Source: Cyanobacteria bacterium auto_48_18
GTDB taxonomy: Bacteria; Cyanobacteriota; Vampirovibrionia; Obscuribacterales; Obscuribacteraceae
Length of the DNA stretch: 64,000 nucleotides
Reading direction: 5' to 3'
Assembly: GCA_036170915.1 (NCBI GenBank)
Contig: JAVHQC010000006.1
Coordinates: 96,001 to 160,000 of the forward strand
A program made the position numbers and the translations under genes. Positions within the stretch are counted from its first letter, which is position 1. The number at the start of each line of letters is the position of its first letter. Under the pieces are notes generated by a model that saw only the letters and a list, made by a program, of their open reading frames with translations, had not been told where the DNA came from and searched no databases. Positions 5,041 to 29,117 of this stretch are shown piece after piece.

Positions 5041-6804
5041 TTATTGCGCTTTGCCTAGCACAGCAATCTTTGCTTTTGCCTTTTCAACGCGCGGATCTTG
5101 AACCGGTGCCAACTCGATAAATGTAGTCAACTCTGACTTCGCCCCTTGAGCGTCGCCGAGCTTTTCCATGGTGCTGGCCAGCAAGAAGTGGGCATCAAGG
5201 TTCTTAGGATCAATGGCGGTTGTTTCTTGGTAGACCTTTTTAGCAGAGTCGGCGTCACCTTTGAGCAAAAGCGCAGAGCCCAGGTTTAAACGGGCAGAAA
5301 TTAGCTTAGGGTCTAATTTGACAGCTTCTTTGGCGTGAGCAAATGATTGACTGACGTTGCCAGAGCGAGCGAATGCGTAGCTCAATCGATCATGCATCTG
5401 GGCAGAATTAGGAAACAGGTAAATAGCTTGCTCTAGCAAGTTAATGGCGTTATCAAAATTGCCCGCAGCCACGCATTTGTTAGCCAGCGCACCTAAAATC
5501 ACTTTGTCTTTGGGGTTCAACTGATAAGCCAGTTCAAGCTCTTTAATGCTCTGGTCTTCTTGACCGAGCTTGTTCAGCACCCTGGCATAGTTTGCGTGAA
5601 ACAGGGCATCATTCGGCTTTAGAGTAATCGCTCTTTTATATTGTTCAGCGGCGGCTGTCCAGTCGCCTTTGATCGTCAGCACTGCACCATAATCGGCAAT
5701 GGCGTCGGCATAGTCAGGATCTGTTTCGATGGCGGCTTTGTATTCGGTAATGGCCCCGTCAAAATTGCCTTCGCCCACAAGATTGTTGGCTTTGAGATAG
5801 TGTGCCTCTGCCGCCAAGAACTGCATAACGTTTTCAGGAATCTCTTTTATGCGTTCTTTAGTGGGCGCACCAAGTACGATGTCATTTCCCACCCAGTCAG
5901 ATTTCATTACAGGCGTCTGTTTTTTTGAATTGGAGCTGCCACTGGTTTCTTGTTCAGTCAACTCACGGGCTTTTTGAAAAGCAGTGGTAAGTGGTGCCAT
6001 TCCATCATTTTCTTTAAGCGCTTTGATCAAATTAGATGAAAAAGAACTGCCCCAGGTCATTTGATCTGGTTTGCTTGATGTCAAAATAATGTAGCCCTTG
6101 CCTAGATTTACCTTACTCGAATCTACGCTGGCCTTAGGGTAGGCGGTTTTAGCCCCTTCAGTTAACTCTGCCGCTCCACTGTAGGGTGCCTCAAGCACCA
6201 TGACGATGCGGTCAGTGTTCACGTTTTCTTTCAAGGTCTTCATCAAAGACTGCATTGATATGCAAGTTGAATAGACGTTATCTAAAGCACAATCATATGC
6301 GCTTAAGTAAGTAGTACCGTCGGTGGTGGGAAAACCGTGGGTGGAAATGAAGACAACCACAAGATCATCAGGACCGGCCAGACTTCCGAGCCAGCCTTTA
6401 CCTAGATTGTTTAGGATGTTTTGCCTGGTGGCTTCTTGGTTGATTAGCGTCTTGACGTGGCTTTCCGGAAAACGACCAGCAGTTTCGTCTTTCAGATAGC
6501 TGGCAAAATTACGAGCTGCTGCATCCATTTTTGCATCAGGCGCGTCCAGTCGGTGTTCTCTAAACTTAGCGGTGCCGATTACAACCGCCCATTTCTGTTT
6601 AATGGGGCGATTGCCGGCTGTAGCATGCGGGTCAAGATCTTGAATTTTTGTCCATTGCACCCCTGATGCTGGTGCTTTATTCAAATCGGGCTCGGGGGCG
6701 GCACCACTAGTGGTACTGTTTTGTGCGGCTAGAGTCGGTGTCAAGGCCGTAAGAATCAAGCTTCCGGCCAGGCTTATCAACCTATTCAACAGACAAAACT
6801 TCAA
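5041..6804 (-). CDS. Secreted caspase-like (peptidase C14) domain plus C-terminal TPR protein; catalytic Cys absent
   Basis: Signal peptide; KWAVVIG, ATRQNI, VFISTHG, VLEAPYSG, SSKPDQMTW, QTP; then about 7 TPRs. Confidence 0.85.
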   Translation of the reverse strand: MKFCLLNRLISLAGSLILTALTPTLAAQNSTTSGAAPEPDLNKAPASGVQWTKIQDLDPHATAGNRPIKQKWAVVIGTAKFREHRLDAPDAKMDAAARNFASYLKDETAGRFPESHVKTLINQEATRQNILNNLGKGWLGSLAGPDDLVVVFISTHGFPTTDGTTYLSAYDCALDNVYSTCISMQSLMKTLKENVNTDRIVMVLEAPYSGAAELTEGAKTAYPKASVDSSKVNLGKGYIILTSSKPDQMTWGSSFSSNLIKALKENDGMAPLTTAFQKARELTEQETSGSSNSKKQTPVMKSDWVGNDIVLGAPTKERIKEIPENVMQFLAAEAHYLKANNLVGEGNFDGAITEYKAAIETDPDYADAIADYGAVLTIKGDWTAAAEQYKRAITLKPNDALFHANYARVLNKLGQEDQSIKELELAYQLNPKDKVILGALANKCVAAGNFDNAINLLEQAIYLFPNSAQMHDRLSYAFARSGNVSQSFAHAKEAVKLDPKLISARLNLGSALLLKGDADSAKKVYQETTAIDPKNLDAHFLLASTMEKLGDAQGAKSELTTFIELAPVQDPRVEKAKAKIAVLGKAQ

Positions 6805-6828
6805 TTGCTATCTCCTGCTACTCACTAC

Positions 6829-8580
6829 TTATTGATGGGCAAGAGCCACATCTACCGCCATAAGTCCATTGGGGTCGTTAAAGCTTACTTTAACCAAACT
6901 GCCTGACATAATTGTGGTGCTGCGAGCCATTCTTTCTTGACCAGGCACTTGATCAGGCAAAATCACCGGGGTTGGATCGTCCCATGATAATTGCATGCGT
7001 GTGGGCACCAGATCTTTAGCACCAGACATGTCGTCAGAAACATAGGCAGTGAGATATTCAGGCGGGTTAAGAGCGGCTTCGTCAGCTATTTTCTTGGTTG
7101 AATAAAGCAGACTGATTTTTTCAATACCAGGATTGTGATCGAAGGTCAGCCAATCTTTAGGCAATGGGTAGTCGACTTTGGCTTTGAGCTGATTGTCTTT
7201 ACCTGTATCCTTAGATGGGAACAGGATGGCTTTTTTACCACTGCTGCTCTGTTTCATCAAGATGTAAGCAAAGCCGTCTTTGTCTGGTATCACATGAAAG
7301 CGAATTGAATCACCAGATTGAAAAGCCATTTTATTGTTGCAGCGGAAAATCTTGCCTTTGCGATTGAGTTCAATCCAGTAAGACATGCCTGTGCTCTCAG
7401 ATGACACTTTAACTGTGTTCTTAGGAGACTCTGTCATAGGGGTTACAGGCTTAACTGGCTTTACCGTCACGGCTGGTGCCAGTACAACAACTTCTTCCTC
7501 TTTTTTGGGCTTCACCGCAATTTCTTCAGTCGGTTCTTCAACGCCCTTGGCCAGAACTTTTTTGTCTATCCACTTATTGACGAAGCTAAGATCGTCTTTG
7601 CTGAATTGACCGATTTCAAAGATCAAGTGCTCAGCCGAGTTTGACATTACTTTGTCTTTGTTTGGAGTGGCGAGACTATCGAAAAGTTTGAAGGTGGCAA
7701 CTGGCCGCACCAATTTATCGTTCGAACCCATAATGAAGAGTACAGGTGTTTGCTTGATCAGGGTAGCTTGTTCGATATTGCCGTCCATGAATTTTTGGAA
7801 GGCTCTCAGTTCGTTAGGGCTCAGTTTGGTACGGCAAAGTGGGTCGTTAAGCCAGCGCGATCTCAGATCGCTTTTTGTTGTGGCTTTGCCAACTACCATC
7901 GGGCCGATGTCCATGGGTTTGTCGAAGCCAGCAAAAATGGCATGAGCACCGACGTGCAGAGTGACGTCGTTGAAGCGATCACCTGACGGTACTGACGAAA
8001 TCAGTCCGTCAATTAAGTCAGGGTACATGGCGGTGGCGTGAATGCCTATTCCTCCACCCATAGACTCACCCAGCATAATCACAGGAAGACCAGGGTGCAC
8101 TTTGCGAATCTCGAGCAAAGCTCTTTTGATATCCACCAGTGAGCCATCAAAGTCTATCAGCGCATTTTTTTCTTTTGGAATCCACGAACCAAAACCACGC
8201 ATATCAATGGCGTAAGTAATGATGCCCTTTTTCGCCATTTCTCGGCCGAACTCTTCGTAAACACCTTTGTGTAAGCCCAGGCCGTGGATGCACAAGAGCA
8301 CTGCCCTTGGAGTGGCCGTTTCGTCTATCCACCGCAGGCAAGGCACTTTGTCGAGCTTCTGTGTTTTGCCTGTGTTAGCCACAGTGGCCCCGGCCATGGC
8401 AGAGACTGGAAACTGTGCTGACGGGCCGGCTGGCGGAGCATAGTGACTGATTGCGTTTTCAGCGCGAAAGATATCATAGTTGTCGCCGGCGTTCTGGGCC
8501 TTTGCTTGCATCCCGTTAGCCTGGCTAAAAATTATGGTGGCGAGAGCCAGAAATGTATTTGTTTTTTTCATCACTTTCAC
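6829..8580 (-). CDS. Secreted alpha/beta hydrolase (lysophospholipase-like) with C-terminal DUF4384-like domain
   Basis: Signal peptide; HGLGLH, DMRGFG, GESMGG nucleophile elbow, GSNDKLV, AEHLIF. C-terminal FQSGDSIRF...DGFAYI...SSG...LFP...PGIEKI resembles DUF4384. Confidence 0.85.
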   Translation of the reverse strand: MKVMKKTNTFLALATIIFSQANGMQAKAQNAGDNYDIFRAENAISHYAPPAGPSAQFPVSAMAGATVANTGKTQKLDKVPCLRWIDETATPRAVLLCIHGLGLHKGVYEEFGREMAKKGIITYAIDMRGFGSWIPKEKNALIDFDGSLVDIKRALLEIRKVHPGLPVIMLGESMGGGIGIHATAMYPDLIDGLISSVPSGDRFNDVTLHVGAHAIFAGFDKPMDIGPMVVGKATTKSDLRSRWLNDPLCRTKLSPNELRAFQKFMDGNIEQATLIKQTPVLFIMGSNDKLVRPVATFKLFDSLATPNKDKVMSNSAEHLIFEIGQFSKDDLSFVNKWIDKKVLAKGVEEPTEEIAVKPKKEEEVVVLAPAVTVKPVKPVTPMTESPKNTVKVSSESTGMSYWIELNRKGKIFRCNNKMAFQSGDSIRFHVIPDKDGFAYILMKQSSSGKKAILFPSKDTGKDNQLKAKVDYPLPKDWLTFDHNPGIEKISLLYSTKKIADEAALNPPEYLTAYVSDDMSGAKDLVPTRMQLSWDDPTPVILPDQVPGQERMARSTTIMSGSLVKVSFNDPNGLMAVDVALAHQ

Positions 8581-8722
8581 TTAGACAGATATCCTAACAA
8601 GTCACCTACTGCAGCCACTGCCAATTTAGGCGTAACCGGCAAAAAGTAAATGAGCCCCAGCCGAGGGCCAGGGCATCATTATATATGGTTGCCATTAAAA
8701 CCGGCTTGAGCTTAGCTGACCT

Positions 8723-10762
8723 TTATTTTGCCGCTCCGGCTTCTTCTTCGGCGTTAGCTCCGTCTTCAGCCTTAGCGCCATTTTCAGCTTTGGTTTCATG
8801 ATTAGAATTACCGTTGCTGCCTTCAGGCTTAGCTTCTTCGGCATCAACGTCTTTCTCATCTTCGCCTTCAGCGTCAGCTTCGTCTGTTGCTGCCGCTTCG
8901 CCTTCGGCTTTGGCTTCCGTGCCTTCATCTGAGGCGGTTTCAGCCGCTTGCTTCTGCTTGTATTCGTTGCCTTCCTGGTCCATGATGACAACATGGCCGC
9001 GCAGCTCGTTCATAGTCTCTCTGATTTCGGCTTCTGCAGCCTCGGCAGCTACTTGACCGCGCAATTTACCTATGATGTCTTCGGCTTTTGCTTTTGAAGC
9101 GTCAGTTAAGCCTTTGCCCAGATCTTGCATCTGTCTTTCGACTGTGTAGATCAGGCCGTCAACTTCATTGCGCAAATCGGCCATGGCTTTGGTCTTTCTA
9201 TCGCCTTCGGCATTCTCGGCAGCTTCTTTAACCATCCGCTCAATATCTTCTTTGGTCAGGTTAGTGCTGGCTGTGATGGTGACATTTTGTTCTTTGCCGG
9301 TGCCCAGATCTTTAGCCGTTACTTTGACTATGCCGCTGGCATCAATATCGAAAGATACTTCGATGCGTGATGCGCCACGGGCACCAGGGGCGATGCCGTC
9401 CAGTCTGAAATTACCAAGCTTTTTGTTGTCGCGTGCCATGGCCCGCTCACCCTGGAAGATGTAGATATCTACTGCGGTCTGGTTGTCTTCGGCAGTTGAG
9501 CAGAGTTGGGTTTTGTGGCAAGGAATAGTGGTGTTACGCTCCACCAATTTGGCGAAAACACCACCCATGGTTTCAATACCAAGAGAAAGGGGTGTGACAT
9601 CAAGCAGTACCAGGTCTGTTACTTCACCGGCGAGCACACCTGCTTGCAGTGCGGCACCCACTGCCACCACTTCGTCAGGGTTAACGCTTTGATTTGGTTC
9701 TTTACCGCCAGTCAGGCTTTTGACCAGGTCTTTGACGGCAGGTATACGAGTTGAACCGCCAACCAGAACCACTTCATCAATTTCGTTGTAAGTAAGTTTG
9801 GCATCGGCCATAGCCTGTTCGATTGGCTGTTTGCAACGCTCAACGAGAGTGTGAGTGAGCTCGTTAAAACGTGAGCGAGTCAATTTCATGTCAAGGTGCT
9901 TGGGCCCCTGATCGTTGGCTGTAATGAAAGGCAAGGAGATAACTGTTTCAGTCACTGATGAGAGTTCAACTTTTGCTTTTTCTGCAGCTTCAGTTAGACG
10001 TTGTAGAGCTTGTGGATCTTTGCGCAAATCAATAGATTCGGAACTTTGAAATTCTGTGGCAATCCACTGTACAAGCGCGTGATCGAAATCGTCGCCACCC
10101 AGGTGAGTATCACCTGAGGTTGATTTTACTTCGATCAAACCATCACTGACTTCGAGAATGGAAACGTCAAATGTACCGCCGCCAAGATCGAAAACCAGAA
10201 TAGTTTCGTCTTTGCCTTTTTTCTCAACGCCATATGCAAGCGCTGCTGCAGTGGGTTCGTTGATGATGCGCAGCACTTCAAGACCAGCAATAGTGCCTGA
10301 GTTTTTGGTTGATTGTCTTTGTGAGTCATTGAAATAAGCAGGTACTGTAATGACGGCACTGTCTACTTTTTCGCCCAGATATTTTTCAGCATCTTCTTTC
10401 AGTTTGCGCAGAATCATGGCTGAAATTTCTTCAGGCGTGTATTCTTTGTCTGAAATCATCACGCGTACGCCGCCATCTGATGATTCTTTAACTTTATACG
10501 AGACGATTTTGCATTCTTCTGATACTTCGTTAAAGCGTCTGCCGATGAAGCGCTTGATTGAGTAAATGGTATTGACCGGATTGACTACGGCCTGTCTGCG
10601 GGCCAGAAGCCCCACTAGCCGTTCACCAGTTTTATTGAAGGCCACAACTGAAGGTGTGGTGCGACCGCCTTCAGAGTTTGCGATGACGGTGGCGCGGCCA
10701 CCCTCCATCACTGCGACGACAGAGTTTGTTGTTCCAAGATCGATTCCGACTGTTTTTGCCAT
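8723..10762 (-). CDS. dnaK: Chaperone DnaK (Hsp70)
   Basis: [53 protein letters not shown]. Confidence 0.97.
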
Positions 10763-10950
10763 GGTTTTTTTCGCGGTTCCTAAGAAACGGTTTTAATATA
10801 GATATAGACTAGCAAAGGCTACCACCAAGCATCGCTCGCTGTAAGACTTAGTGCCAGACTGTAACTTTCTTTTAGTGCAAATGGTGGGAAAAGGGAATAG
10901 AATGGCAGTCAAGAGCAACGCTGTTTTTTGTAGCGGTCAGTAAGAGGAAT

Positions 10951-11274
10951 TTGAGAATGGATCAACAGGGTGAGCAACCGCTGGAGGCAAGACCAGGTAG
11001 GCGGGCCGGACGCATGACCCATAGCGAGCTCAAAACGCTCAAAACTGTGCAGACAAAAGAAGACAGTCCGCTTGTTCAGCTCGTCAAAGGCATTCAAGGT
11101 TTTTGGCTTGGAATATTCAGCACTTTTGCCAGTTTACTTCCCACCAAAAAACATTCGTCCTGTGCGGTAAATGGTCATGTTTTCCCAAAAGGAGCATGGG
11201 ACGGCGATTTTCCCCGCTGCACACATTGCGGAGAGCAAATCACTACGGCTGATCAATTTGGTGGACCCAGATAA
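10951..11274 (+). CDS. Small hypothetical protein with putative Zn-binding motif
   Basis: CAVNGH...RCTHCG (C-x3-H / CxxC); start uncertain (possibly 11014). Confidence 0.55.
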   Translation: MRMDQQGEQPLEARPGRRAGRMTHSELKTLKTVQTKEDSPLVQLVKGIQGFWLGIFSTFASLLPTKKHSSCAVNGHVFPKGAWDGDFPRCTHCGEQITTADQFGGPR

Positions 11275-11350
11275 ATTGATTGACTGAGCTCTTGATTCCC
11301 TATACCATACGTATCTATGTAATTGTTTTTGAATCGGTATACCTTCGCTA

Positions 11351-15560: not shown

Positions 15561-15655
15561 CCGGAAATATCTTCATTTTTGTCTCATTTTTCAAAGCGAG
15601 GCTATGGCCCTTGAGCGGGTATAGAAAGCTTGGAGAAGGTGCAGAGGAAGAAATT

Positions 15656-16345
15656 ATGTTTGCCAAACGTTGCAGTTTCAGAACTTATCAGTTGATTTTA
15701 GCCACTATTTCTCTTGCCAGTCTTGTATCTGCGCCCGCTGCCATGGCTCAGGTCGCCGGGGCAAATCAGAGCATTTATCGCGACGAGCAAGAAATGCTAA
15801 ATACTGACCAGGCCATGATTAACCAGTATCAGACTTCTGAAACAGCGGCGGAGAACAAACTCGCTGCGGAGCAGGCAAAAACTAATGCCTACAGATTATA
15901 TGCTGAAGAGCGTATTGCCCAACTCGAGCAAAATAAAAGCAAATCGCCTGCGCTGGCCGGTTCCAAAGCTGGTGAGATGAGAGTTTTGCAGCAATGGTTG
16001 ATGCAAGACAATGCTTATCGCGCCAAACAGCAGGCTTATATCGACCAATTAGAGCAGTGCATCAGCAATTTGCGCACTAGCCAAACCAACACTTTGGCTA
16101 ATTTGAACACTGATATCAATTCTATGCGCCAGAGTGTGCAAGATGGCAAAGATCAGCAAAAATTTGAAAATCAGATGCAGATGAACCAGTTTAACGAGCT
16201 GAAGAGTGAAATGGGCGCCTGTTCCTGGGGTGATACTCCTAGAGATGGCACTTACAACTCGGTGGGTGGTTACGGCTTCAATGGAGGCTATGGCTACAGC
16301 ATGGGGGGCGGACGCCGCTGGCTCGGGGGCGGTCGAGGTTATTAA
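15656..16345 (+). CDS. Hypothetical secreted coiled-coil protein with Gly/Tyr-rich tail
   Basis: ATG 15656 after GAGG; signal peptide ending AMA; Q/N-rich helices; tail GGYGFNGGYGYSMGGGRRWLGGGRGY. Confidence 0.7.
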   Translation: MFAKRCSFRTYQLILATISLASLVSAPAAMAQVAGANQSIYRDEQEMLNTDQAMINQYQTSETAAENKLAAEQAKTNAYRLYAEERIAQLEQNKSKSPALAGSKAGEMRVLQQWLMQDNAYRAKQQAYIDQLEQCISNLRTSQTNTLANLNTDINSMRQSVQDGKDQQKFENQMQMNQFNELKSEMGACSWGDTPRDGTYNSVGGYGFNGGYGYSMGGGRRWLGGGRGY

Positions 16346-16348
16346 AGA

Positions 16349-18301
16349 TTGTCCGAAGCTGATACTAATAAAAAGAAAAAAGATGATACCGCTGCTGGTG
16401 GCGATCTTCCTGGCTCGCCCTCCGGTTACTCATTCTTTGTAAACGAACCAGGTAATGCTGCTTATACATTCGGTATGGATACCTCTCCTCCAGATTGGTT
16501 CCATACAATGACTTCAGGTATTAGTGTCTCTGCACCTTCTCCTTCTCCTAACCAAGCTTCCGGCCCTTCTCAGACTTCTTCAGTACCGCCTTCTGCCGGT
16601 GATGATGGCGACCATGCCAGTATTGCTCAAGATGTGATGTTTTCTCAAGGCGTGACCATTTCTCAAAACGCGGCGCCTACGCAGGAAGCAAAGGTTTTTG
16701 AAAATACTTTTGACTGGCAGCATACTAGTGTGGCTGAAAATGCCACCTATTCAGCAATGGCACACGTTACTCAAGATGCCTTCAATACGCCACATACAAA
16801 TGTGGCCCAGAATGCCAGCTATTCGCAGCAAGCTTCGGTGGCTCAAGACGCATTTGCTACACAGCAATCTAGCGTGCAAGCAAGCGTTGCTCAAAATGCT
16901 TTTTCTCTGGAAGATGCCAGTGTCTCTCAAGATGCCTTCCAAGTGCCTGAGGCTGCACCTTTTACTCAAGCAGAAAACTCTGACGGCACCGCTAAAAGTG
17001 CACCAGATTTGCGAGATTGGGGAGTGGTGCCTCCCACGGAACCGGCTTATGATGCCTATCAGGCTGATGCTGAAGGCTGGCCCAAGCAACGTGGGGCGAA
17101 AAGGCCACGTGAAGTAACTACCGCACCCTTGCACTTATCGGCTGATAAACGCTTTGCCAAGCTAGCGCTCACACCTGAGTTGACGGCCACCATCGATCGA
17201 ATTTACACACTGGTTGACCTCGACTTTAATGGCTATGTTGATTTCTTCGAACTTTCATCAGTGCTGGAAAGCGATCATCTAAGCGAGTCAGAGAAAGGCT
17301 TTGTACGTCTCATTTATGCAGTTGGATGCAAGGTTTTGGCAGAGCGGCCGCCAGTTTCTAATGGTACGGTGCCGGCGTTGACAAAACAAGATTTTACCCT
17401 TGCCTTTGCCTATCAGGTAGCCAGCACCATGGGTAATACCGAGGCAGTCAGCAAAGGTATTCTGCAAAGCGGACAGAGTACGAAAACCGGTCAATTTGTG
17501 GAGTTTAAGCCCTCACTTTATGCCGACCCTGATTATCCTCTGGTTTCAATCAAACCAGCTGCTGTGAAGCTAGGCACTATGGGCGATGCCTATTTCGCAG
17601 CTGGTGTGGGCTCACTGGCTGAAACTCGGCCGCGTGCCATGATGCGCATTATTTGCGAAAATCTTGACCATAGTTTTTCCATTAGCTTTCCCGGTGCTCA
17701 CGGCAAGCCACTAGAAGTGATGCCCCCTCGTCCGGAAGAGCTAATGCGCTATGCCCTGGCGGCCAAGTACGGCTTCTGGTTTCCTTTGTTGGAGAAGGCT
17801 AACGGTATCTATATGGCCCAGACTAATAGATTGGGTGCAAAGCTTGTGGATAAGCGTAATGAGTCATTTTCTCGCGCCGCTGAAGTAATTGAAACTTTAA
17901 CCGGTGCCACTACGGGCACACTGGTCACAGCTGATTGTTTGCCCGCAGATCTTTTGCGCAAGATTGCTGACCTGACTGGTAAAAAACAGCTAGTTATTGC
18001 TGTTTCTTCTGACTTTGTTCCTGATGCTTCGGCATTCGTGGGCACATCTCCTATTGCCAATAAGCCCTATCCGCTCACCGGTATCGATTTGCAGCGTGGC
18101 CAGGTCTTTCTCGCCAGTGTCTACGGCCAGGCTCAGAGCGCACTTGGTGATGAGCCGATGCAATTTAGCACCGAGCAATTTTTACGCTTTTTCAAAGTTG
18201 TTTATTATGAAGAAGACAGTGAGTCAGGCTCAAAGGTCTCTCATTTGATGCGCACTAAAAAGAAACCTAATGCTGGCGGCAATCCATGGAAACAAGCTTG
18301 A
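16349..18301 (+). CDS. Calpain-like (peptidase C2 fold) protein with EF-hand and N-terminal repeats; catalytic residues absent
   Basis: DLDFNGYVDFFEL EF-hand; VKLGTMGDAYFAAGVGSLA; WFPLLEKA; IETLTG. Confidence 0.72.
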   Translation: MSEADTNKKKKDDTAAGGDLPGSPSGYSFFVNEPGNAAYTFGMDTSPPDWFHTMTSGISVSAPSPSPNQASGPSQTSSVPPSAGDDGDHASIAQDVMFSQGVTISQNAAPTQEAKVFENTFDWQHTSVAENATYSAMAHVTQDAFNTPHTNVAQNASYSQQASVAQDAFATQQSSVQASVAQNAFSLEDASVSQDAFQVPEAAPFTQAENSDGTAKSAPDLRDWGVVPPTEPAYDAYQADAEGWPKQRGAKRPREVTTAPLHLSADKRFAKLALTPELTATIDRIYTLVDLDFNGYVDFFELSSVLESDHLSESEKGFVRLIYAVGCKVLAERPPVSNGTVPALTKQDFTLAFAYQVASTMGNTEAVSKGILQSGQSTKTGQFVEFKPSLYADPDYPLVSIKPAAVKLGTMGDAYFAAGVGSLAETRPRAMMRIICENLDHSFSISFPGAHGKPLEVMPPRPEELMRYALAAKYGFWFPLLEKANGIYMAQTNRLGAKLVDKRNESFSRAAEVIETLTGATTGTLVTADCLPADLLRKIADLTGKKQLVIAVSSDFVPDASAFVGTSPIANKPYPLTGIDLQRGQVFLASVYGQAQSALGDEPMQFSTEQFLRFFKVVYYEEDSESGSKVSHLMRTKKKPNAGGNPWKQA

Positions 18302-18316
18302 TTGCCACCTTATATT

Positions 18317-18685
18317 TCAAGCTTTGTAGTTGCCGAATTCTTTGATCAAATCGGCCACAGCAGCTTTTAGCTCTTTGCCGGCAGTTAACTCGGCAATTTT
18401 TTGATCTTGCTTGAATGTCGTCAATGCCACTTCTGCTTTCTGCCTGACTCTGTCGTTAGGATGGGCTTGCGAGACAAAATAGAGGGGCGGAATGCTCACC
18501 GGTTTTTGTTCTTTAACCAATTGATCGATAACTATGCTGACTGCTTGATAATCTTCGTTTTTCAGCCCAGCGATTAATGCTTTGAAAAGCATATGATCGA
18601 TTTTATTGAAAATGCCTTTGGTGGCTGTAGAGACCAGATCGGCTACTGAATTAAACTGAGCACCATAATCACTCAAAATGGGCAC
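18317..18685 (-). CDS. Hypothetical protein (helical, HEAT-like)
   Basis: 122-aa ORF; SIPPLYFVSQAHPNDRVRQKAEVAL. Confidence 0.65.
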   Translation of the reverse strand: MPILSDYGAQFNSVADLVSTATKGIFNKIDHMLFKALIAGLKNEDYQAVSIVIDQLVKEQKPVSIPPLYFVSQAHPNDRVRQKAEVALTTFKQDQKIAELTAGKELKAAVADLIKEFGNYKA

Positions 18686-18745
18686 CTTAAGAAAGCTGTT
18701 AAACTGTCGGGGCTAAAGAATAGATAGCTGCCATTATGTCATGGG

Positions 18746-21352
18746 TTGATAAGCTTGAGAAGTAAATCACTGCTGCCGGCGTCTGTGAGCCTGCTTTTGT
18801 GGCTTGCCGGTGCCAATGCGTGGGCTTCTCATGATAGTTTTCTCTTTGGTGAACAAGAGAAAATTACTACCTGGGACGGTGCCCTTAAAGCTTCCGACCT
18901 GGGCATCGTTAGCTTGATTAACAGCGGTTGGCAAGCCAATTTAAACCAAGTGTTAGTTGATCAATATCTCGCACGCACTGTACTCAATCAACTTGCTCCC
19001 GACTCAAAATCTCTCAAACAAATTGATAAAGTCAGCAGAGCTGCCGAGGTTCAGTTGCTGACAAAGTTTTCTAATCTTCGTTTGGCCCGGGCCGAAAAGA
19101 TATTGCAATTACATACACTGGCGAGAGCCCAGCAGTTTGACCAGGCTCGCAATCAGCTTATCGCTCTGATTGTTTTTCAGCAGTCATCGACAACGAAAGA
19201 GCCAGGAAAAAAAGAGCCTGACAAAAAAACGCCTGGCAAAGAACAGTCTGGCAAAAAACAGTCTGGCAAGAAACAGCCTGACAAAAAGCAGAACACTGCC
19301 AAGGCAAAGCTTTCTTTCGCTGCCGCCTATCAACTAGCAATGAAATTGGCTAATGATTTAAAAAACAGTGAACCCGAAAACAGCCGCTCTTTATTGACAG
19401 CATTAAACCTGCTTGCACAGTCAGGTGCTAAAGTGAAATCTATGAAGCCTTTCAATTTGGATATCGGCCAGAATGTTGATGCGGAGGCAGAAAGTCTCTA
19501 TTCAGACGGTGTGGCACTGTTTAAGGCGGGGCAATTTGAGAAGGCCGAAGCAAAGTTGCGCCAGGCTCTGACTGCTTATGAGCAGGCTAGTGGTGAAAAG
19601 AGACTGTTGCAAGAGCGCGAAACCCGACTGGCCCTGGCTCAGAGCTTAAGCGGCCTTGACCGTCGTGAAGAGGCTCTGCAACATTTTAGTGCCGTCATTG
19701 AAAATCTAAAACAGTCGCCACTTTCTGCCAGGCCGCAGACCGATGAAACTGTGGAGCAATTCATACGCTTGGCCGAAATTGGTCTGGTTGACTTACCTTT
19801 GCCGCCTGCAAAAAATTACATAATTACACAAGAGCAAAAAGACAAAGTCGTGCATAGCTTGCACGCTCTAGTTTCAGCTGCATATCTGTGCAAAATAGAC
19901 GGCAAGCTTAGCGAGGCTGCCCATCTTTTTCGTAAGGCCAATTTAGTCAGTCAATATTATTTTCCCGAACTAGAAGATTTGCGCTCTAGTGTTTCTTATG
20001 ATTTGGGTGAAACTTTATTTTGGGCTGGCTCCTGCGATGAAGCTGAGCACTATATGACCGAAGCGCTCAATTTGAGGGAAAAGAAAGGCAAAACCGATAA
20101 TGCTGCAGTTGATACACGAAGCACCCTTGGTCGTATTTTGATTGCAGCAGAGCGTGGAGAATTTGCCAGACGCTTTTACCTAGAGACCATGCAGCTTTTG
20201 GCCGCACGAGAGTTTGGCGCACCTGTTGATAATTTTCGAGCGCTTTCGTTTGAGCAATTGACTGAACAACTTTCGCAGCATTATTTTAAAACTGCTCAAA
20301 GGGCTTCAGATACGGCCAGTGAAAGTTTTAAGCGGCAATTCAGCGATGCACTTCAAGGTTACGCCGATGCCTCAATTGCTTGTAAGCGTTACGACCAGGC
20401 CACCATCAGTGATGCTGTTTTGCTTTCTATGCGGGAAGCCAAAGGCGATGAAAAAGACCAGGTTTTAGCCACTTTATGGCAAATGGCCTGGGTGGCTCAG
20501 ATGGCCAATCAATTTGAAGAGTCGGCTAGACTTTATACGCGTATGATAGAAGAGTTTCCCCAGACAAAAATCAGGCAGGTGGCTGACTGGTATCAGTCTC
20601 GCGCCATTGCTCTCGATCTTCTCGGGCGCTATAAAGAAGCCACCAGTGATTTTAAAAAGGCACGCGATGGTTTTAAGATATGTCTTAAAGACGAGCAAGA
20701 TCTTGATGAAATCGACCGTCTCACTTGGACCATCGGTGACATTGAATATAACTTGTTAAGCCGCCATAAAAGCCCACCTTCAGATAGTGATTATCTTAAA
20801 GCCGAACCAACCTGTTTTTGGCAAGCAAAGCGCTTTCCACTAAAAGTATTTGTCGAGAGCAGCACCACCAATGGTTTCGGCGGCGATCTGAAAAAATTGA
20901 TGCTTAAGGCCATGGCGCAATGGACTGATTTTGAAAACTCACCAGTCAAGCTTGCTTTCGTCGACAGCGCTAAAGAGGCTGATGTATATATCGAAAGAGT
21001 GACTTCATATGACGATATTCCTTACAGTTCTGCCGGTCGCACCAGCGTAATTTACGTTAACGGTGATGCTGGTTCAAGAGCACTGGATAAGGCCCATGTG
21101 CGCGTCTACTGCCCATCATACGATGGGGAGTCTTCGGTGCAAAATGGCATTGACAAGATCATCAATCAAGAAATGAGTTCATTTGCAAAAACTCATCTTT
21201 ATACACTTTTTATGCACGAATTTGGTCACGTAATTGGAGTTGGGCACTCTCCCGCCGGGCAAGATGTAATGTACTGGAAGTCATGTTCGTCAGAGCTTTC
21301 TAGCCGTGACCGAGAAAGTATTCGCAAGCTTTATCGTCATAACCAAAAATAA
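18746..21352 (+). CDS. Secreted TPR protein with C-terminal matrixin (M10) metalloprotease domain
   Basis: Signal peptide; TPR-like helices; FPLKVFV, HEFGHVIGVGHS, DVMY Met-turn, LSSRD. Confidence 0.88.
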   Translation: MISLRSKSLLPASVSLLLWLAGANAWASHDSFLFGEQEKITTWDGALKASDLGIVSLINSGWQANLNQVLVDQYLARTVLNQLAPDSKSLKQIDKVSRAAEVQLLTKFSNLRLARAEKILQLHTLARAQQFDQARNQLIALIVFQQSSTTKEPGKKEPDKKTPGKEQSGKKQSGKKQPDKKQNTAKAKLSFAAAYQLAMKLANDLKNSEPENSRSLLTALNLLAQSGAKVKSMKPFNLDIGQNVDAEAESLYSDGVALFKAGQFEKAEAKLRQALTAYEQASGEKRLLQERETRLALAQSLSGLDRREEALQHFSAVIENLKQSPLSARPQTDETVEQFIRLAEIGLVDLPLPPAKNYIITQEQKDKVVHSLHALVSAAYLCKIDGKLSEAAHLFRKANLVSQYYFPELEDLRSSVSYDLGETLFWAGSCDEAEHYMTEALNLREKKGKTDNAAVDTRSTLGRILIAAERGEFARRFYLETMQLLAAREFGAPVDNFRALSFEQLTEQLSQHYFKTAQRASDTASESFKRQFSDALQGYADASIACKRYDQATISDAVLLSMREAKGDEKDQVLATLWQMAWVAQMANQFEESARLYTRMIEEFPQTKIRQVADWYQSRAIALDLLGRYKEATSDFKKARDGFKICLKDEQDLDEIDRLTWTIGDIEYNLLSRHKSPPSDSDYLKAEPTCFWQAKRFPLKVFVESSTTNGFGGDLKKLMLKAMAQWTDFENSPVKLAFVDSAKEADVYIERVTSYDDIPYSSAGRTSVIYVNGDAGSRALDKAHVRVYCPSYDGESSVQNGIDKIINQEMSSFAKTHLYTLFMHEFGHVIGVGHSPAGQDVMYWKSCSSELSSRDRESIRKLYRHNQK
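19196..19291 (+). repeat. Imperfect 15-nt coding tandem repeat (K-x-P/S-G/D-K)
   Basis: KEPGK KEPDK KTPGK EQSGK KQSGK KQPDK KQ. Confidence 0.75.
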
Positions 21353-21459
21353 AGTTAGGCACTGGTGGTGCCAAATTTGAACACAAGGATTGTAAAGGGT
21401 TAATCTTGCTCAAACGGCAAGCGGCTAAAATGTTGCTTGCCCCTACTTTGAGAATAGAT

Positions 21460-22158
21460 ATGCATTCTGCCAAAACTGATCCTGGCATCCATCCAAGCCC
21501 TGTAGACCGCAACAAGTCGATTATCTGGGCCCGGTATCTAATTGATTCCACCGATTGGTTGATGCTTGCAATCAATGTCAGTCGCGCTGAACCTTCAGAT
21601 CTGCGCAATAGCGTTCTGTCGTCGTCTATACGACTTTTGACACTATCAGTGGTGACTCCAGGTGGCAAGGTTTTGTTTGAAACTATGCTCAAGCCACAGC
21701 AAGTTATACCCAACGAGCTGATTAGTGATCATGGTATTGATCAAGCCGTGGTCTTTAATGCACTGCCTTTCAGTGAGATTGTTATTCACTTGAACAAATT
21801 GTTCGAAGGCAGAAAAGTATTGGCCTGGGATCTCAATGCATTGCAAGAATTGCTAGATGAAGTATCTACGGTTTATGCTCAACCGCAGTTGCCTTTAATC
21901 GGCTTTAGTCTGCGCCCTGAATATGCTCGATTTGTCGGGCAGATGGATACACAAGCCCATTATTCGCCACAAGAATTAAAGGTCGAAGGCAAAGGTGCTA
22001 CCGCCCAGTGTCGTGCTCTGCTATCTACACTTTACGAAATGGCCAGTTCTTCGCAATCTAGCAACAATGCTGTTGCCGGCAACCAAGGTTGGACTGGCGA
22101 ATTTTACCGGCCTAAAGTTTCGGCAACTGAAAAAATCAAAGACTTTCTAGGTCTTTAG
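21460..22158 (+). CDS. DEDDh 3'-5' exonuclease-like fold, catalytic motifs degenerate
   Basis: GKVLFETMLKP...IP...HGI...NALPFSEI...LFEGRKVLAW matches the DnaQ-like scaffold; no DxETTG. Confidence 0.65.
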   Translation: MHSAKTDPGIHPSPVDRNKSIIWARYLIDSTDWLMLAINVSRAEPSDLRNSVLSSSIRLLTLSVVTPGGKVLFETMLKPQQVIPNELISDHGIDQAVVFNALPFSEIVIHLNKLFEGRKVLAWDLNALQELLDEVSTVYAQPQLPLIGFSLRPEYARFVGQMDTQAHYSPQELKVEGKGATAQCRALLSTLYEMASSSQSSNNAVAGNQGWTGEFYRPKVSATEKIKDFLGL

Positions 22159-23194
22159 TAATCAATTGCAAGGCCGGATCGGATAAAAACCGCACGGGCA
22201 TAATTGGATCTAATAGAGTGGTGCCGGCACCAAATAGGCCGGTACCATAGTGATTGATTGGCACTCCCAGTCGCCTGTATAGCTCGACGGCAGCGCCAAT
22301 GCAGGTCCACCTATCGCTGGCTATGCGGCCCATAAAGGTACCGAACCAGTCGTAGCCGCTGGCATGAAAAAATTTTTGCAGCCCATTTTTAATAGATTGT
22401 GGCAAAGGCAGATAATCAATTCTTTTTGCTAATCGAATATTCTCTTCAATGGCCCATTTTTTATTGGTCTGAACCATTTCTAAAGCTGCGTCGGCGGCCT
22501 TCTTTTTTTGCTCCGCTGTCCACGGTGTCTTTAAATGCAGGCCTACATAGTGACCTTTGTAGCCCGCACCTGTGAGATCATCAATGTCGTGCAAAATGCA
22601 GCCTTTCGCCATATATGAGCTGAAAAGCATTTTTTTACCGTCCGCCATTTCAATTACTGTTTCGGCATGACCAACACTTTCATGCAAAGTTTTGGCGATA
22701 TTTCCGCTGGTGAGAAGCAAATCGCCTGATTGCAGTACCGCAGCCGGCGGATTAATTAGCGTATTCAAAGGCACGGGCCCATACCCCTGTTTCTTGAACC
22801 GTGCTTTGTTTCTTCTGTAAAGAACGAAAATATAGATCCATAGGGCCAGCTCTGCCAGGGCAAATACATGCACCACTGGATGAATGGCCCTGGCCAAAAG
22901 AGCGACTGAACTCATGAGGATACCGAGCACCACTGGTAGTTGCAGCTCAATGCGCGAGAGCACATCAAAATAAGTCTGTAATAAATGGTCTACTTTTATA
23001 CGAGTTAAAATCAACCAGGCGCCGCTTACCGCTACGCAACCGCCCGATAGCTGCACGTCTAACTGGCCGCTGAAAAATTTCCATGTCAGCCAGATTAAGG
23101 CCAAGTAGCTGATGGTATTGAGGCCTTTTACCAGGCTAAAGTAAGCAGGTGTGCGTTGTACTTCAACGCTGGCGGCTGGTGGACAATAAGACAT
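22136..23194 (-). CDS. Membrane protein with permuted papain-like (NlpC/P60, YiiX/LRAT-like) domain
   Basis: About 4 N-terminal TM segments; LQSGDLLL, GHAETV, YDW, TCIGAAVELYRRLGV (His before Cys). Confidence 0.7.
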   Translation of the reverse strand: MSYCPPAASVEVQRTPAYFSLVKGLNTISYLALIWLTWKFFSGQLDVQLSGGCVAVSGAWLILTRIKVDHLLQTYFDVLSRIELQLPVVLGILMSSVALLARAIHPVVHVFALAELALWIYIFVLYRRNKARFKKQGYGPVPLNTLINPPAAVLQSGDLLLTSGNIAKTLHESVGHAETVIEMADGKKMLFSSYMAKGCILHDIDDLTGAGYKGHYVGLHLKTPWTAEQKKKAADAALEMVQTNKKWAIEENIRLAKRIDYLPLPQSIKNGLQKFFHASGYDWFGTFMGRIASDRWTCIGAAVELYRRLGVPINHYGTGLFGAGTTLLDPIMPVRFLSDPALQLITKDLESL

Positions 23195-23354
23195 CGCCCT
23201 AATTTACAGGGCCGTAGAGTTTTTGGCCAGCTTTGCGTGTTCCAGCTTTAACTTCTCAGCTTTACCTTTTAGGGATGAGATGAGAATTCTTCCTAACTTC
23301 TCCATAAGCAGTGTCAGGTTGGTAGAATGCTCAATTTAGGCCCTGCTCTCTCAT

Positions 23355-26015
23355 ATGCGTGATTTTCAAATCAAAAGCAAAACTGCCGCTCTGGCCCTCA
23401 CCGTTCTTTTGAGCGCGTCTGCAGGCAGCTTTGTATTCGGGCAAGAGTCTGTCTGGCAGGCTCTCTTTGCTTCTGGCGCTAATGCCGCGCAGGCTCGTAA
23501 CTGGCCCGAAGCCGAGAAGCACTTAACTGCCGCGTGGAATTCTGCCAACGAATTTGAAAACAGCGATCCACGAAAGGCAAAGACCTTGAGGGCGCTAGCT
23601 GGAGTCTACTCAGCATCAGGCAACTATGTTGCTGCCGAAAGTCATTATCAACAGTTGCTCAAATTAGATGATGGCGCCACCGACGCCGTGCGATTTGTCG
23701 ATTTGCGCGCCCTCAATCATGTGCTCGTGGCCGCAGGCAAATTTGCCGACGCTGAAAAAATCCTTCAACAACAACAAGAGATTGCCGAAAAGCTCAATGA
23801 AAGCAATGCCAGGGCCTCTGTCTGTACCGATCTTGCCATGCTCTATCAGCGCACCGGGTCCATTGGCAAAGTCGAAACCCTGTTGTTACAAGCCATAAAA
23901 CTGAAAGAGCAAGATCACAGCAAGAGCGATGCTGCTGTTCTAATTGCTCAAGAACGTCTGGCTGACTTTTATTTGAGCCAGGGCCGCCTCTCAGAAGCAG
24001 AGACCCTTTATACACTGGCAACGACTCAGCGTCAGATTATTAACGCTAAAGACTTATCTCTTTCAAAAAATCTAGCTAGCCTGGCAGTTTTATATCAGAA
24101 GCAAGGCAAGGATGCTAAGGCCGACAGTACCTCTAAACAAGCCATTGCTGAGGTTGAAAAACAATTTGGACAATCGCAAGAATTGGCTGCCGCTCTTGTT
24201 GTTCGCGGCCGGCTGCTCAGTGAAAATCGCCCTGACCTGGCAATTATTGTTTTGCAAAAAGCACTGCAAATTCGCCTCAAAGAAGCAACTTCCGACGATC
24301 AGCAATTGAGCGCAACACTGCTGGCGCTGGGCAATGCTTATCTTGAGTGTGACAATTATAGAGCGACAGAAAAAAGTGTAAAACAAGCCCTGGCTATTGA
24401 TGAAAGGGCCGCGGGAAGAAAGTCACCGGCAGTGGTGCTCGACTTAACTACCCTGGGGCAGTTGTATCTGCGCCAGGGTAAATATTCACTTTCAGAACAA
24501 GTCTATAAAGAAGCGTTGGAAATCTCCAGGGCCATCCACGGCGATGAGCATCCTGAAGTCGCCACCTGCATGAACAATCTCGCTTTCCTTTACGGCAACA
24601 TGGGCCACCTTGATCAAGCGCAGGCCTTACTGACTCAGGCACTGGCTGTGCGAGAGAAAGTTTATGGTAAATCGCACATTCAAGTAGCGCAAAATCTGGT
24701 CAATCTTGCCGACATTCTGGTGCGGAATGATCAAAAATCTAAAGCGGTACCACTTCTGGTGCGTGCTCTAGCAATTGAAGAGCAATCGCTTGGCGCTGAC
24801 CATGACTATGTAGCGCTTATATTGCGCGAACTGATTGATATCATGAAAGATGATAATGCCCAGTTAGACGCGGCCGAACAATACGCCAGGAGCCTGTTGG
24901 CCCGTGATCAGCGCCTCACCAGTGACAGTAATTTGTTAGTCGCTCGTGATCTCGAAATTCTCGCTAAAGTGCTTATTTCTGCAAATAAAACTGCTGAAGC
25001 AAAACCGCTAATTGCCCAAGCGCGGTCAATTGAAAAAGCAGAGAAGGGTCTTTATTTTGAGCAGAATCAGCCGGCGGTTGTCGCTGCTCCTGCCGGAGCA
25101 AAACCTATTCAAGATAAATGGGCGCTGGTAGTAGGTATCAGTAGTTTCCAAGATTCGTCGTTGAATTTGCGATTTGCCGCTAAAGACGCCATCGACTTCA
25201 AAAATTTCCTCATTACTCGTGCCAATTTTCAGCCTGACCATGTCAAATTGATTACCGATCAAGACGCCACCCGGTCAAATATTGTGGCCCTACTTGGCGA
25301 CAAGTGGTTGAAACATGTCGTCAAGAAGGATGATATGGCTGTGATTTATATTTCCAGCCACGGTACTCAGGCCGCCAGCCAGGTTGGCGGAGCCAATTTT
25401 ATTGTGCCTTATGAAGGTAACGCCCAGAACATCGTCTTTTCTGGTATTCCCATGCAGTGGCTGGTGGCCGGTCTTAAAGATCTGGTGCATTCTGATCGTA
25501 TCTGTGTGTTTTTAGACGTTTGCCACGGTGGCGCGGCTGCCAACAGCGAAGTGCTCAAAGAAAAGTCTGCCTATTCAGAGCCTGCTGAAACTGCGCAATC
25601 ACCTGGAGAATCTGGTGGTAAGGGCATCTATCGCATTCGCAATATTACTGCCGAGACCTTAGTCTCGCCGCCGGGGCAAATTGTGGTTGCAGCCAGTCAA
25701 GCCGATCAGATATCCTGGGAGTCAAAGCGCTATTCTAATGGCGTGTTTACTCGGCGGCTGATAGAAGGTCTGACCTTAAACGGTGCCGACACTACTCTCA
25801 ACCAGGCTTTTAATTATTTAAAAGAGCAGGTTGAAGAGGAAGTATTGAGAGATCGCACTCAATTGCAAGCACCGGTGGTAGTACCAAAACTCGGTCTCGA
25901 TAATGAACCAAAATTAGGCACTAAACCGGCAAATCCACGTAGCCCTGCAGAAATTTTAGCTAAGCCCTCAGGCACTAAGGCATCCAGCTCATCGGTCACT
26001 GTTAAGAAGCAATAG
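23355..26015 (+). CDS. Secreted TPR (kinesin-light-chain-like) protein with C-terminal caspase (C14) domain, His-Cys dyad intact
   Basis: Signal-like N-terminus; TPRs such as HPEVATCMNNLA; KWALVVGIS, LRFAAKDA, ISSHG, FLDVCHGG, QISWE, NGVFT. Confidence 0.92.
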   Translation: MRDFQIKSKTAALALTVLLSASAGSFVFGQESVWQALFASGANAAQARNWPEAEKHLTAAWNSANEFENSDPRKAKTLRALAGVYSASGNYVAAESHYQQLLKLDDGATDAVRFVDLRALNHVLVAAGKFADAEKILQQQQEIAEKLNESNARASVCTDLAMLYQRTGSIGKVETLLLQAIKLKEQDHSKSDAAVLIAQERLADFYLSQGRLSEAETLYTLATTQRQIINAKDLSLSKNLASLAVLYQKQGKDAKADSTSKQAIAEVEKQFGQSQELAAALVVRGRLLSENRPDLAIIVLQKALQIRLKEATSDDQQLSATLLALGNAYLECDNYRATEKSVKQALAIDERAAGRKSPAVVLDLTTLGQLYLRQGKYSLSEQVYKEALEISRAIHGDEHPEVATCMNNLAFLYGNMGHLDQAQALLTQALAVREKVYGKSHIQVAQNLVNLADILVRNDQKSKAVPLLVRALAIEEQSLGADHDYVALILRELIDIMKDDNAQLDAAEQYARSLLARDQRLTSDSNLLVARDLEILAKVLISANKTAEAKPLIAQARSIEKAEKGLYFEQNQPAVVAAPAGAKPIQDKWALVVGISSFQDSSLNLRFAAKDAIDFKNFLITRANFQPDHVKLITDQDATRSNIVALLGDKWLKHVVKKDDMAVIYISSHGTQAASQVGGANFIVPYEGNAQNIVFSGIPMQWLVAGLKDLVHSDRICVFLDVCHGGAAANSEVLKEKSAYSEPAETAQSPGESGGKGIYRIRNITAETLVSPPGQIVVAASQADQISWESKRYSNGVFTRRLIEGLTLNGADTTLNQAFNYLKEQVEEEVLRDRTQLQAPVVVPKLGLDNEPKLGTKPANPRSPAEILAKPSGTKASSSSVTVKKQ

Positions 26016-26023
26016 GAGAAATT

Positions 26024-27058
26024 ATGAAACTGGTAAATAGCGTTGGCAACGGTGGCAGAAATATGTTTACTACTCGTCGAACAGTTGCCGCCGCCTTGCT
26101 TGTGGCGCTGCTGGCTGCCTCGCTTCCTGTTGCTCCGGCTCAAGCATTCTGGCCATTTTCAAAGAAACATTCTGCCGACAACAAACGTAAGAAAAGAAAT
26201 TTGCACGGCACACAAGTTGGCCTCGTGCCTGGTAATCCACCAGCAATTTACTGGCAGGCGAAAAAACCTAAGGCCGTAATTTTGGCACTGCACGAGCTTG
26301 GTCTTTATAGTGGCTGCTTCGACGACCTCGGCCAGCGTATGGCTGAAAAAGACATTTCTGTCTACGCCATTGACTTGCGCGGCTTTGGTGGATGGCGTGA
26401 AATGGACAAAAAAGAAAGCAAAATGGATTTGAAAAAGACATTAGCTGACGTCAAAGGTTCTTGTGAAGAAATACGCAAACTTCATCCGGACGTACCTGTT
26501 TTCATTCTCGGTGAGGCCATGGGTGGTGCTCTGGCACTGCAAGCCGCAAGCGAATATCCAACCTTAATTAACGGCATCATCTCAGCTGCCCCTGGTGGCG
26601 ATCACTTTAAGTCAGTGAACAATTTCATGAACGTTGGATTAGGCATGGCTGTAGGCTCTAAGCATGCGTTTGGTTTGGGCGAAAAACTGATGGATGTGGC
26701 CACACCAAAGCAAGAATTGAAAGCAGCACTTAGTGACGACGACATGGTGCGCATGGACGTTACTGCAGGCGAAATGGTGGCCTGCCAGTTCTTTATGTAC
26801 AAGACTAAAGCGATGGCAAAAGAAATTAAAAACATGCCTGTGCTGATTGTGCACGGCGACAAAGATGGCGAATCTAAGCTTGTTGGTTCAGAAAGCGTCT
26901 ATAAAAATCTGGCCACTAAAGACAAAAAGTTTGTGCGTTTGCCAGAAGGCGACCACTACACCTTTGAAGATGTAAAAGTGGCAGATGATGCTTTTGGCAC
27001 AGCTCTGGCGTTCATTGACGAACATACCAGCGGCAATGCACCGGCTAAAGCGGAATAG
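26024..27058 (+). CDS. Secreted lysophospholipase-like alpha/beta hydrolase lacking the catalytic Ser
   Basis: Signal peptide ending AQA; HELGL, DLRGFG, GEAMGG, HGDKD, GDH. Confidence 0.85.
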   Translation: MKLVNSVGNGGRNMFTTRRTVAAALLVALLAASLPVAPAQAFWPFSKKHSADNKRKKRNLHGTQVGLVPGNPPAIYWQAKKPKAVILALHELGLYSGCFDDLGQRMAEKDISVYAIDLRGFGGWREMDKKESKMDLKKTLADVKGSCEEIRKLHPDVPVFILGEAMGGALALQAASEYPTLINGIISAAPGGDHFKSVNNFMNVGLGMAVGSKHAFGLGEKLMDVATPKQELKAALSDDDMVRMDVTAGEMVACQFFMYKTKAMAKEIKNMPVLIVHGDKDGESKLVGSESVYKNLATKDKKFVRLPEGDHYTFEDVKVADDAFGTALAFIDEHTSGNAPAKAE

Positions 27059-29103: not shown

Positions 29104-29117
29104 AAAGTTGTGTCTGA

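Follow-up and report, generated by a model that had tools for sequence, protein, structure and literature searches.

We analysed two operons in a 64,000-nucleotide stretch of DNA, called the window from here on, from Cyanobacteria bacterium auto_48_18 (contig JAVHQC010000006.1, positions 96,001 to 160,000), a member of the Obscuribacteraceae, which are non-photosynthetic Cyanobacteriota. Each operon couples a caspase-like protein with an alpha/beta hydrolase, and in each of them one partner lacks key catalytic residues. Operon A, hydA-casA, runs from 8580 to 5041 on the minus strand and operon B, casB-hydB, from 23355 to 27058 on the plus strand. The genes, coordinates and residues named in an initial annotation of this DNA were all borne out by the translation of the window. 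Genomes, loci and contigs are coded G, L and C respectively, G000 being the window's own genome. The features on which the argument depends are the following:

hydA, 8580 to 6829, minus strand: 583 amino acids, monoacylglycerol-lipase-type hydrolase plus DUF4384, predicted exported (translation, Pfam)
DUF4384 domain of hydA, 6832 to 7395, minus strand: predicted immunoglobulin-like (Ig-like) beta-sandwich, G-A-K-D-L at 7023-7009, candidate caspase site
casA, 6804 to 5041, minus strand: 587 amino acids, pseudo-orthocaspase (residues 71-302) plus C-terminal tetratricopeptide repeats (TPRs), predicted exported (translation, Pfam)
casB, 23355 to 26015, plus strand: 886 amino acids, TPR-orthocaspase, predicted exported (translation, Pfam)
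hydB, 26024 to 27058, plus strand: 344 amino acids, monoglyceride-lipase fold, predicted exported

The Pfam scan found Peptidase_C14 and TPR in both casA and casB and Hydrolase_4 in both hydrolases, and the DUF4384 of hydA scored above the family cut-off. The TPRs are C-terminal in casA, whereas in casB they are N-terminal and of a different type. A gap of 8 nucleotides separates the casB stop from the hydB start. Regarding export, we devised a crude hydrophobicity rule for this analysis, which speaks for "signal-peptide-like" N-termini only. All four proteins pass it, in agreement with the initial annotation, as do 100/113 hydB homologs, 88/117 casB-like and 87/112 casA-like proteins, against 480/2089 control open reading frames.

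casB has the sequence features of an active orthocaspase, namely the His-Cys dyad (His669 in SSHG, codon at 25359; Cys723 in LDVCHGG, codon at 25521) and both acidic S1 residues for Arg/Lys, which lie in F-A-A-K-D (25173-25190) and in D-V-C. The S1 position was mapped by alignment to GCIND of the yeast metacaspase and to Asp95/Asp211 of TbMC2 (PMC6426788). A basic site, G-G-K-G-I (25614-25628), follows the catalytic Cys, and the linker contains K-G-L-Y-F-E-Q (25044-25064). The casA-like and casB-like sets each comprise the 120 top homologs, the window protein included, taken without genomic context, and some of the casB-like proteins may be unpaired paralogs. In the casB-like set the dyad, the D-x-C Asp and the S1 Asp are each found in 120/120, and the post-Cys basic site in 115/120. 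The string K-G-L-(Y/F)-F-E-Q occurs in just 8/120 of them; within G000 it is common only to the casB linker and the standalone DUF4384.

casA has neither the dyad nor the S1 aspartates of an active C14 peptidase. Its L-E-A-P-Y-S-G replaces the orthocaspase L-D-x-C-H-S-G, with Pro for Cys (codon CCC at 6186-6184) and Glu for the D-x-C Asp, and the S1 Asp is lost as well (M-D-A-A-A at 6528-6508). The post-Cys loop reads G-A-K-T-A (6156-6142), where the orthologs mostly have G-A/S-K-A/S-L. Across the casA-like set there are 19 dyad states; His-Cys is kept in 4/120, the D-x-C Asp in 4/120 and the S1 Asp in 0/120, and the post-Cys basic site is present in 102/120. The His reported earlier as kept is indeed there in the window protein (His156, in S-T-H-G), but it is peculiar to the window's subclade and not a family trait (15/120 homologs).

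hydA carries the sequence features of Hydrolase_4, with an IHGLG oxyanion loop, Ser173 in GESMGG (TCT at 8064-8062), Asp288 and His318. From its sequence it is a monoacylglycerol-lipase-type hydrolase with a full triad, predicted to hydrolyse lipid esters. hydB departs from Hydrolase_4 at both the nucleophile, which is Ala165 in GEAMGG (GCC at 26516-26518), and the oxyanion loop LHELG, where Gly has become Glu91. The change from HG to HE had been seen before and is present, although its meaning had to be refined: alignment with the corresponding HG of monoglyceride lipase places it in the oxyanion loop, and the catalytic His311 is kept together with Asp281. The best 120 hydB homologs all have HE and GEAM (120/120), thus Glu91 and Ala165, while Asp281 and His311 are each found in 118/120 and Arg58 in 108/120. 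Arg58 lies before the fold and after a basic run, mostly with no Gly next to it.

The hydB model (predicted local distance difference test score, pLDDT, 92) is a continuous monoglyceride-lipase fold whose best structural matches are ordinary monoglyceride lipases (against 3pe6, Z 29.5, root-mean-square deviation 2.7 A over 266 residues). At fourteen positions, many of them beside the catalytic motifs, hydB has a near-invariant residue that is seldom found in the 71 Ser-bearing paralogs; they include Glu91, Ala165, His194, Cys254, Tyr259, Glu283, Asp310 and Tyr312. The distinctive polar positions would line the pocket, judging by the alignment. Therefore hydB looks remodelled for a new ligand or chemistry and not decayed, and since Asp and His are kept and new invariant polar residues would occupy the pocket, it may be a sensor or a repurposed enzyme. 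A contig with a 90%-identical hydB (L129) is titled Flavobacterium psychrophilum and is probably mislabelled or from a mixed bin.

Conservation of the enzyme-pseudoenzyme pairs

Among the 85 genomes of the order searched, hydB is present in 51, always as a single copy (51/51), and casA-type genes in 69. GEAMGG is found in 44/44 hydB genomic loci, which span 18 genus codes. A caspase lies directly upstream of hydB in 41 of these 44 loci, two genes off in one (G082), and nowhere in the examined flank in two (G027 and G035). The caspases paired with hydB have the Cys in every case and the His wherever the contig covers that region. Regarding operon A, the upstream hydrolase was seen in 62 of 64 casA loci, always with Ser-Asp-His, and the other two loci end at contig edges. 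The hydA and casA subtrees have the same main subclades. The ratio of nonsynonymous to synonymous substitution rates (dN/dS), measured against two close relatives, was 0.021-0.032 for hydA, 0.023-0.024 for casA, 0.022-0.029 for hydB and 0.10-0.11 for casB.

The window genome has 8 caspases, about 11 related hydrolases and a second operon A on contig C12. The paralog background comes from a census of G000, G003, G019 and G029 plus orthologs from other genera, in which G003 is the only further genome of the window's genus. Only the 11 hydB rows lack the Ser among its 82 hydrolases. Among its 87 caspases, His and Cys are both kept in 61/64 outside clade A and in 3/23 inside it. The four fully counted genomes contain 13 pairs of a caspase and a hydrolase lying no more than 3 kb apart, where paralog numbers would predict about 1.2, and all 13 have exactly one defective partner, although they are not a test of independent cases because they descended from few ancestral events.

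The enzyme-pseudoenzyme pairing is thus confirmed as real, family-wide and under purifying selection. The initial annotation had named two observations that would undo it, orthologs retaining Ser or Cys and a lack of conserved adjacency. Actually, GEAM is found in every hydB homolog, His-Cys is almost absent from casA homologs, and the adjacency of caspase and hydrolase is kept across the family. Sequencing error and local decay are ruled out by these residue states together with the low dN/dS; operon B also shows zero differences to the contig of its likely source run, which is not independent evidence. The pairing as first described stands in so far as the pairs are conserved and the dead genes have dN/dS of 0.02-0.03, but it is not absolute, given that 5/64 casA loci keep His-Cys, and hydB looks remodelled. 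In four of these five loci (G022, G023, G027 and G088) DUF4384 is a separate gene, and in G066 it is fused. We had considered that fusion of DUF4384 tracks the loss of the dyad; this held in the first sample and was broken by G066.

Several related genes were seen along the way. The second operon A copy (G000:C12:8145-11677, minus strand) has a caspase without His and Cys (ATSS, LQAAYSG) and a hydrolase whose N-terminal extension contains GSKQL. In two genomes a TPR-thioredoxin gene (WCxPC) lies within operon A (L072:4507-5295 in G022 and L077:3680-4393 in G019), whose product may protect extracytoplasmic cysteines from oxidation. Another clade of dead caspases, which also bear signal peptides, does not adjoin hydrolases (L162:1321-2811, L202:970-2400 and L239:1351-2664); we take their C-terminal domain to resemble TonB_C.

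The dnaK neighbourhood and the link between the operons

Two further features lie upstream of operon A:

dnaK paralog, 8723 to 10762, minus strand: upstream of operon A
terminator-like hairpin between dnaK and hydA, 8654 to 8674, minus strand: consensus match only

In two genomes of another genus (G093 and G094) hydB-casB is read leftwards and dnaK-hydA-casA rightwards with nothing between them. casB also faces dnaK divergently in G092 and in G066, where operon A is located elsewhere. About 12.6 kb separate dnaK from casB in the window's genus; the operons are divergent and 45-75 kb apart in two further genera, and far apart or on separate contigs in others. Furthermore, 49 of the 51 hydB genomes also have casA. 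An old physical link between operons A and B is therefore likely.

dnaK is found upstream of operon A in 16 loci of one scan and in 5 more, from many genera. We nevertheless rejected it as a member of the operon, because the terminator-like hairpin intervenes and many loci are without dnaK, so that it is probably a landmark rather than part of the system. Such hairpins are not more numerous in the region than in shuffled sequence, which bears on the one at 8654 to 8674. The genome has five dnaK-like genes, among them the window's paralog, which has a long acidic tail; dnaJ or grpE were not seen adjoining it.

In quick trees casA stands apart from casB and hydA apart from hydB, and casB groups outside clade A, with DVCH paralogs that are unpaired. 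Nevertheless, a single clade of A and B was not rejected by approximately unbiased (AU) tests, run on subsets of 36 of the 87 caspases and 37 of the 82 hydrolases in the census (p 0.40 for the caspases, 0.43 for the hydrolases). We therefore do not claim that the two pairings arose independently, and all pairs may trace to one event.

The interval between the operons holds, on the plus strand, a gene for a TPR-matrixin metalloprotease with a signal peptide (18746-21352) and another whose product matches the calpain-like family Peptidase_C2 weakly (16349-18301). Beyond operon B, at 28408-31112 on the minus strand, an APC-type transporter gene is followed by a shorter gene which repeats the C-terminal domain of the transporter.

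A shared basic motif, the proposed switch and its alternatives

Most intact caspases of the census have (G/A/S)-x-(K/R) and then a small and a hydrophobic residue shortly after the catalytic Cys. G-x-K-D-L/I is present in 38/38 DUF4384 domains. In N-terminal extensions, G-x-K-small-hydrophobic was found in 9/17 fused hydA, 1/5 split hydA and 1/11 hydB proteins, the controls being 1/49 other hydrolases and 2% of random windows. Because the orthocaspase MaOC1 self-activates after Arg219 (PMC7475262), the post-Cys basic loop would be a self-cleavage loop, and we infer that casB and the five further intact paralogs cleave behind basic residues and activate themselves at G-x-K-(G/A/S)-hydrophobic, the cut lying after the Lys.

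In the model of the hydA DUF4384 (pLDDT 71.5), G-A-K-D-L lies in a low-confidence loop of the beta-sandwich, and a fold search with this model gave generic Ig-like matches only (best Z 7.7). DUF4384 has been reported fused to 23 cyanobacterial orthocaspases (PMC8283722) and, more widely, to proteases, and it forms some Csx30 C-terminal domains (10.1101/2022.08.17.504292). Standalone DUF4384 proteins contain two copies of the motif; in one genus, three genomes (L285, L286 and L288) have such a protein together with an intact caspase-TPR gene, divergent from operon A. A standalone DUF4384 with GAKGL and GSKDL was also found in G000 (L297:431-4011, on C34) behind an 864-residue protein which, read by eye, starts like a trypsin, shows no evident complete triad and probably has a membrane segment.

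The reading we tentatively put forward, at somewhat below even chances, is a lipase switch outside the cytoplasm, gated by caspases and with pseudoenzymes as adaptors, in which cleavage, activity and export are all predicted. It builds on the observed pairing, residue states and purifying selection and on the folds. Active Lys/Arg-specific caspases would activate themselves at the post-Cys loop. Because the motif recurs in casA, in the flexible loop of hydA's DUF4384 and often in the N-terminal extension of hydA, operon A would supply such a caspase with its substrates. casA, whose dyad and S1 pocket are lost, would work without catalysis of its own, either as an adaptor for hydA or as one half of a heterodimer, in the manner of cFLIP, a pseudo-caspase with a cleavable loop that regulates its active paralog caspase-8. 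hydA would be processed in trans by an active caspase, be it casB or a different paralog, and its lipase activity on envelope or external lipids would thereby be released. Finally, hydB, with no nucleophile and a re-lined polar pocket, could be a ligand-binding regulator of casB.

A stronger version, which we consider rather unlikely as a whole, is an extracytoplasmic cascade of mirror-image pairs: hydB would sense a ligand and trigger casB, which, via casA, would cleave hydA at the G-x-K of its Ig-like domain and unleash the lipase, one ancestral pair having split four jobs over two operons. If true, it would be a bacterial parallel to pseudo-caspase regulation, would give DUF4384 a concrete candidate role as a caspase substrate or docking domain, would predict a cleavage motif for a family of 8-23 predicted-exported caspases per genome, and would add a Ser-less lipase-fold protein with a new pocket.

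Several observations weigh against the switch. The motif counts come from related sequences and hence are not independent, and in the window itself both the casA loop (GAKTA) and the hydA N-terminus miss the full motif, while the conserved Arg58 of hydB does not fit G-x-K followed by Gly. The five casA loci with His-Cys have it beside an intact hydrolase, though Gln replaces their D-x-C Asp, and in G032 (L079) an intact caspase lies tail-to-tail with an intact hydrolase. Furthermore, 20 of the 69 casA-bearing genomes show no hydB, therefore casB cannot be an obligate activator, and an obligate four-protein complex is not likely. The cross-operon heterocomplex proposed in the initial annotation thus keeps the support of the two genomes where both operons flank one dnaK, but its obligate form is weakened. 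A complex prediction for casB (300-862) with hydB (42-336) scored 0.00 in two runs and counts neither for nor against.

We weighed four other explanations:

i) hydB may be a repurposed enzyme or toxin, in which His-Asp together with Glu91, His194 or Cys254 would make up a new site for catalysis or metal binding and casB would mature the protein at Arg58, operons A and B then being separate caspase-effector modules. The near-complete retention of Asp281 and His311 (118/120), the 14 near-invariant positions, many of them flanking the catalytic motifs, Arg58 after a basic run in 108/120 and the strict single copy in 51/51 genomes all favour it. However, the best structural matches are ordinary monoglyceride lipases, no known catalytic constellation was matched, and operon A is left unexplained. 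We regard it as doubtful.

ii) Each pseudoenzyme may be a stable partner or chaperone of its neighbour in the periplasm, with no proteolysis involved and the Lys motifs as docking or structural elements. This would suit the strong conservation of casA despite its lost dyad and S1 pocket, the shared subclades of hydA and casA, and operon A being often found without B. Nevertheless, it gives no account of a motif shared by the caspases behind their Cys, by DUF4384 and by the disordered extensions of hydA, nor of the strictly conserved casB dyad, and we hold it to be equally doubtful.

iii) The locus may serve phage defence or cell death in the way of described caspase-hydrolase modules, its hydrolase being the effector that damages membranes, since known modules of caspase and alpha/beta hydrolase kill cells after cleavage (PMC12642450), Canu caspases likewise carry TPR and Ig-like domains (PMC12799240), and casB weakly matches the PADLOC caspase model (E 1e-15). 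This is improbable: most of the family carries the genes, in one or two copies and next to dnaK and further housekeeping genes, the proteins have signal-peptide-like N-termini, neither hydrolase matches PADLOC, and no STAND or other phage sensor was seen. At the level of whole systems, nothing scored above cut-off in PADLOC or NCBIfam.

iv) Inherited synteny, an old cluster near dnaK whose pseudoenzymes arose for unrelated reasons, would agree with the unrejected single origin of A and B and with hydB standing without a neighbouring caspase in G027 and G035, but it is just as improbable, because the pairs persist (41/44 and 62/62) while the flanks, the A-B link and dnaK are often lost, and because operon A has been copied whole (G000 has two).

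Comparison with known systems

The closest described system is that of LcCaspase, which activates an alpha/beta hydrolase by cutting after Arg (Evans et al., PMC12642450). Both cases have adjacent genes for a caspase-like protease and a lipase-like alpha/beta hydrolase, with cleavage after a basic residue that precedes a small one as the proposed switch. In that system the caspase next to the hydrolase is active and excises a middle fragment through cuts at two Arg-Gly sites. An intact neighbouring caspase is found in operon B, but not in 59/64 operon A loci. hydB has a continuous fold and a single conserved Arg58 at its N-terminus in place of two Arg-Gly sites, and R/K-G before strand 1 was found in 0/17 fused and 4/5 split hydA proteins. 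Furthermore, the window proteins look exported, each pair has one defective partner, the candidate sites (G-x-K before a small residue) lie in an Ig-like domain or an N-terminal extension, and the genes seem to be a stable part of the family's gene content, LcHydrolase being compared by its description only.

The cyanobacterial pseudo-orthocaspases of the YS/YN type also have a substituted dyad and long retention, some with export-like N-termini (PMC6426788). However, they keep both S1 aspartates and have fixed dyad substitutions, whereas in casA both aspartates are gone, 19 dyad states occur across its homologs, TPRs are present and the gene is coupled to that of a lipase. Among Hydrolase_4 proteins, human MGLL and Rv0183 of Mycobacterium tuberculosis share the fold of hydB and the full triad of hydA, but they differ in the signal-peptide-like N-termini, the DUF4384 fusion of hydA, and the Ser to Ala change and polar re-lined pocket of hydB. 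The likeness to cFLIP and caspase-8 is an analogy only, that system being eukaryotic, cytoplasmic, Asp-specific and based on death effector domains (DED). Canu (PMC12799240) and Csx29-Csx30 (10.1101/2022.08.17.504292) likewise have a caspase-like protease with TPR or Ig-like domains and a co-encoded substrate; their effector is a nuclease or an anti-sigma factor, and a pseudoenzyme partner is not reported in the accessible parts of these sources. Both alpha/beta hydrolases and caspases have been listed as effectors in conflict systems, and cFLIP named as an inactive caspase (PMC8195603).

Regarding novelty, our literature search, outside which subscription papers and supplements lay, found no description of the window locus or of reciprocal caspase/lipase pseudoenzymes. 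The initial annotation knew of no described system with such a layout; the pairing of caspase and hydrolase as such has been described (PMC12642450), and it is the reciprocal pseudoenzymes that we did not find described in the text accessible to us. The described bacterial caspase-effector modules are, in the sources as we could consult them, intracellular defence switches with an active protease, whereas operons A and B look exported and are kept across most of the family. Thus, the logic of the locus is like that of known caspase-effector modules, but its proteins look exported and each enzyme is paired with a pseudoenzyme, a real and conserved arrangement in which pseudoenzymes of two unrelated folds are used in mirror image.

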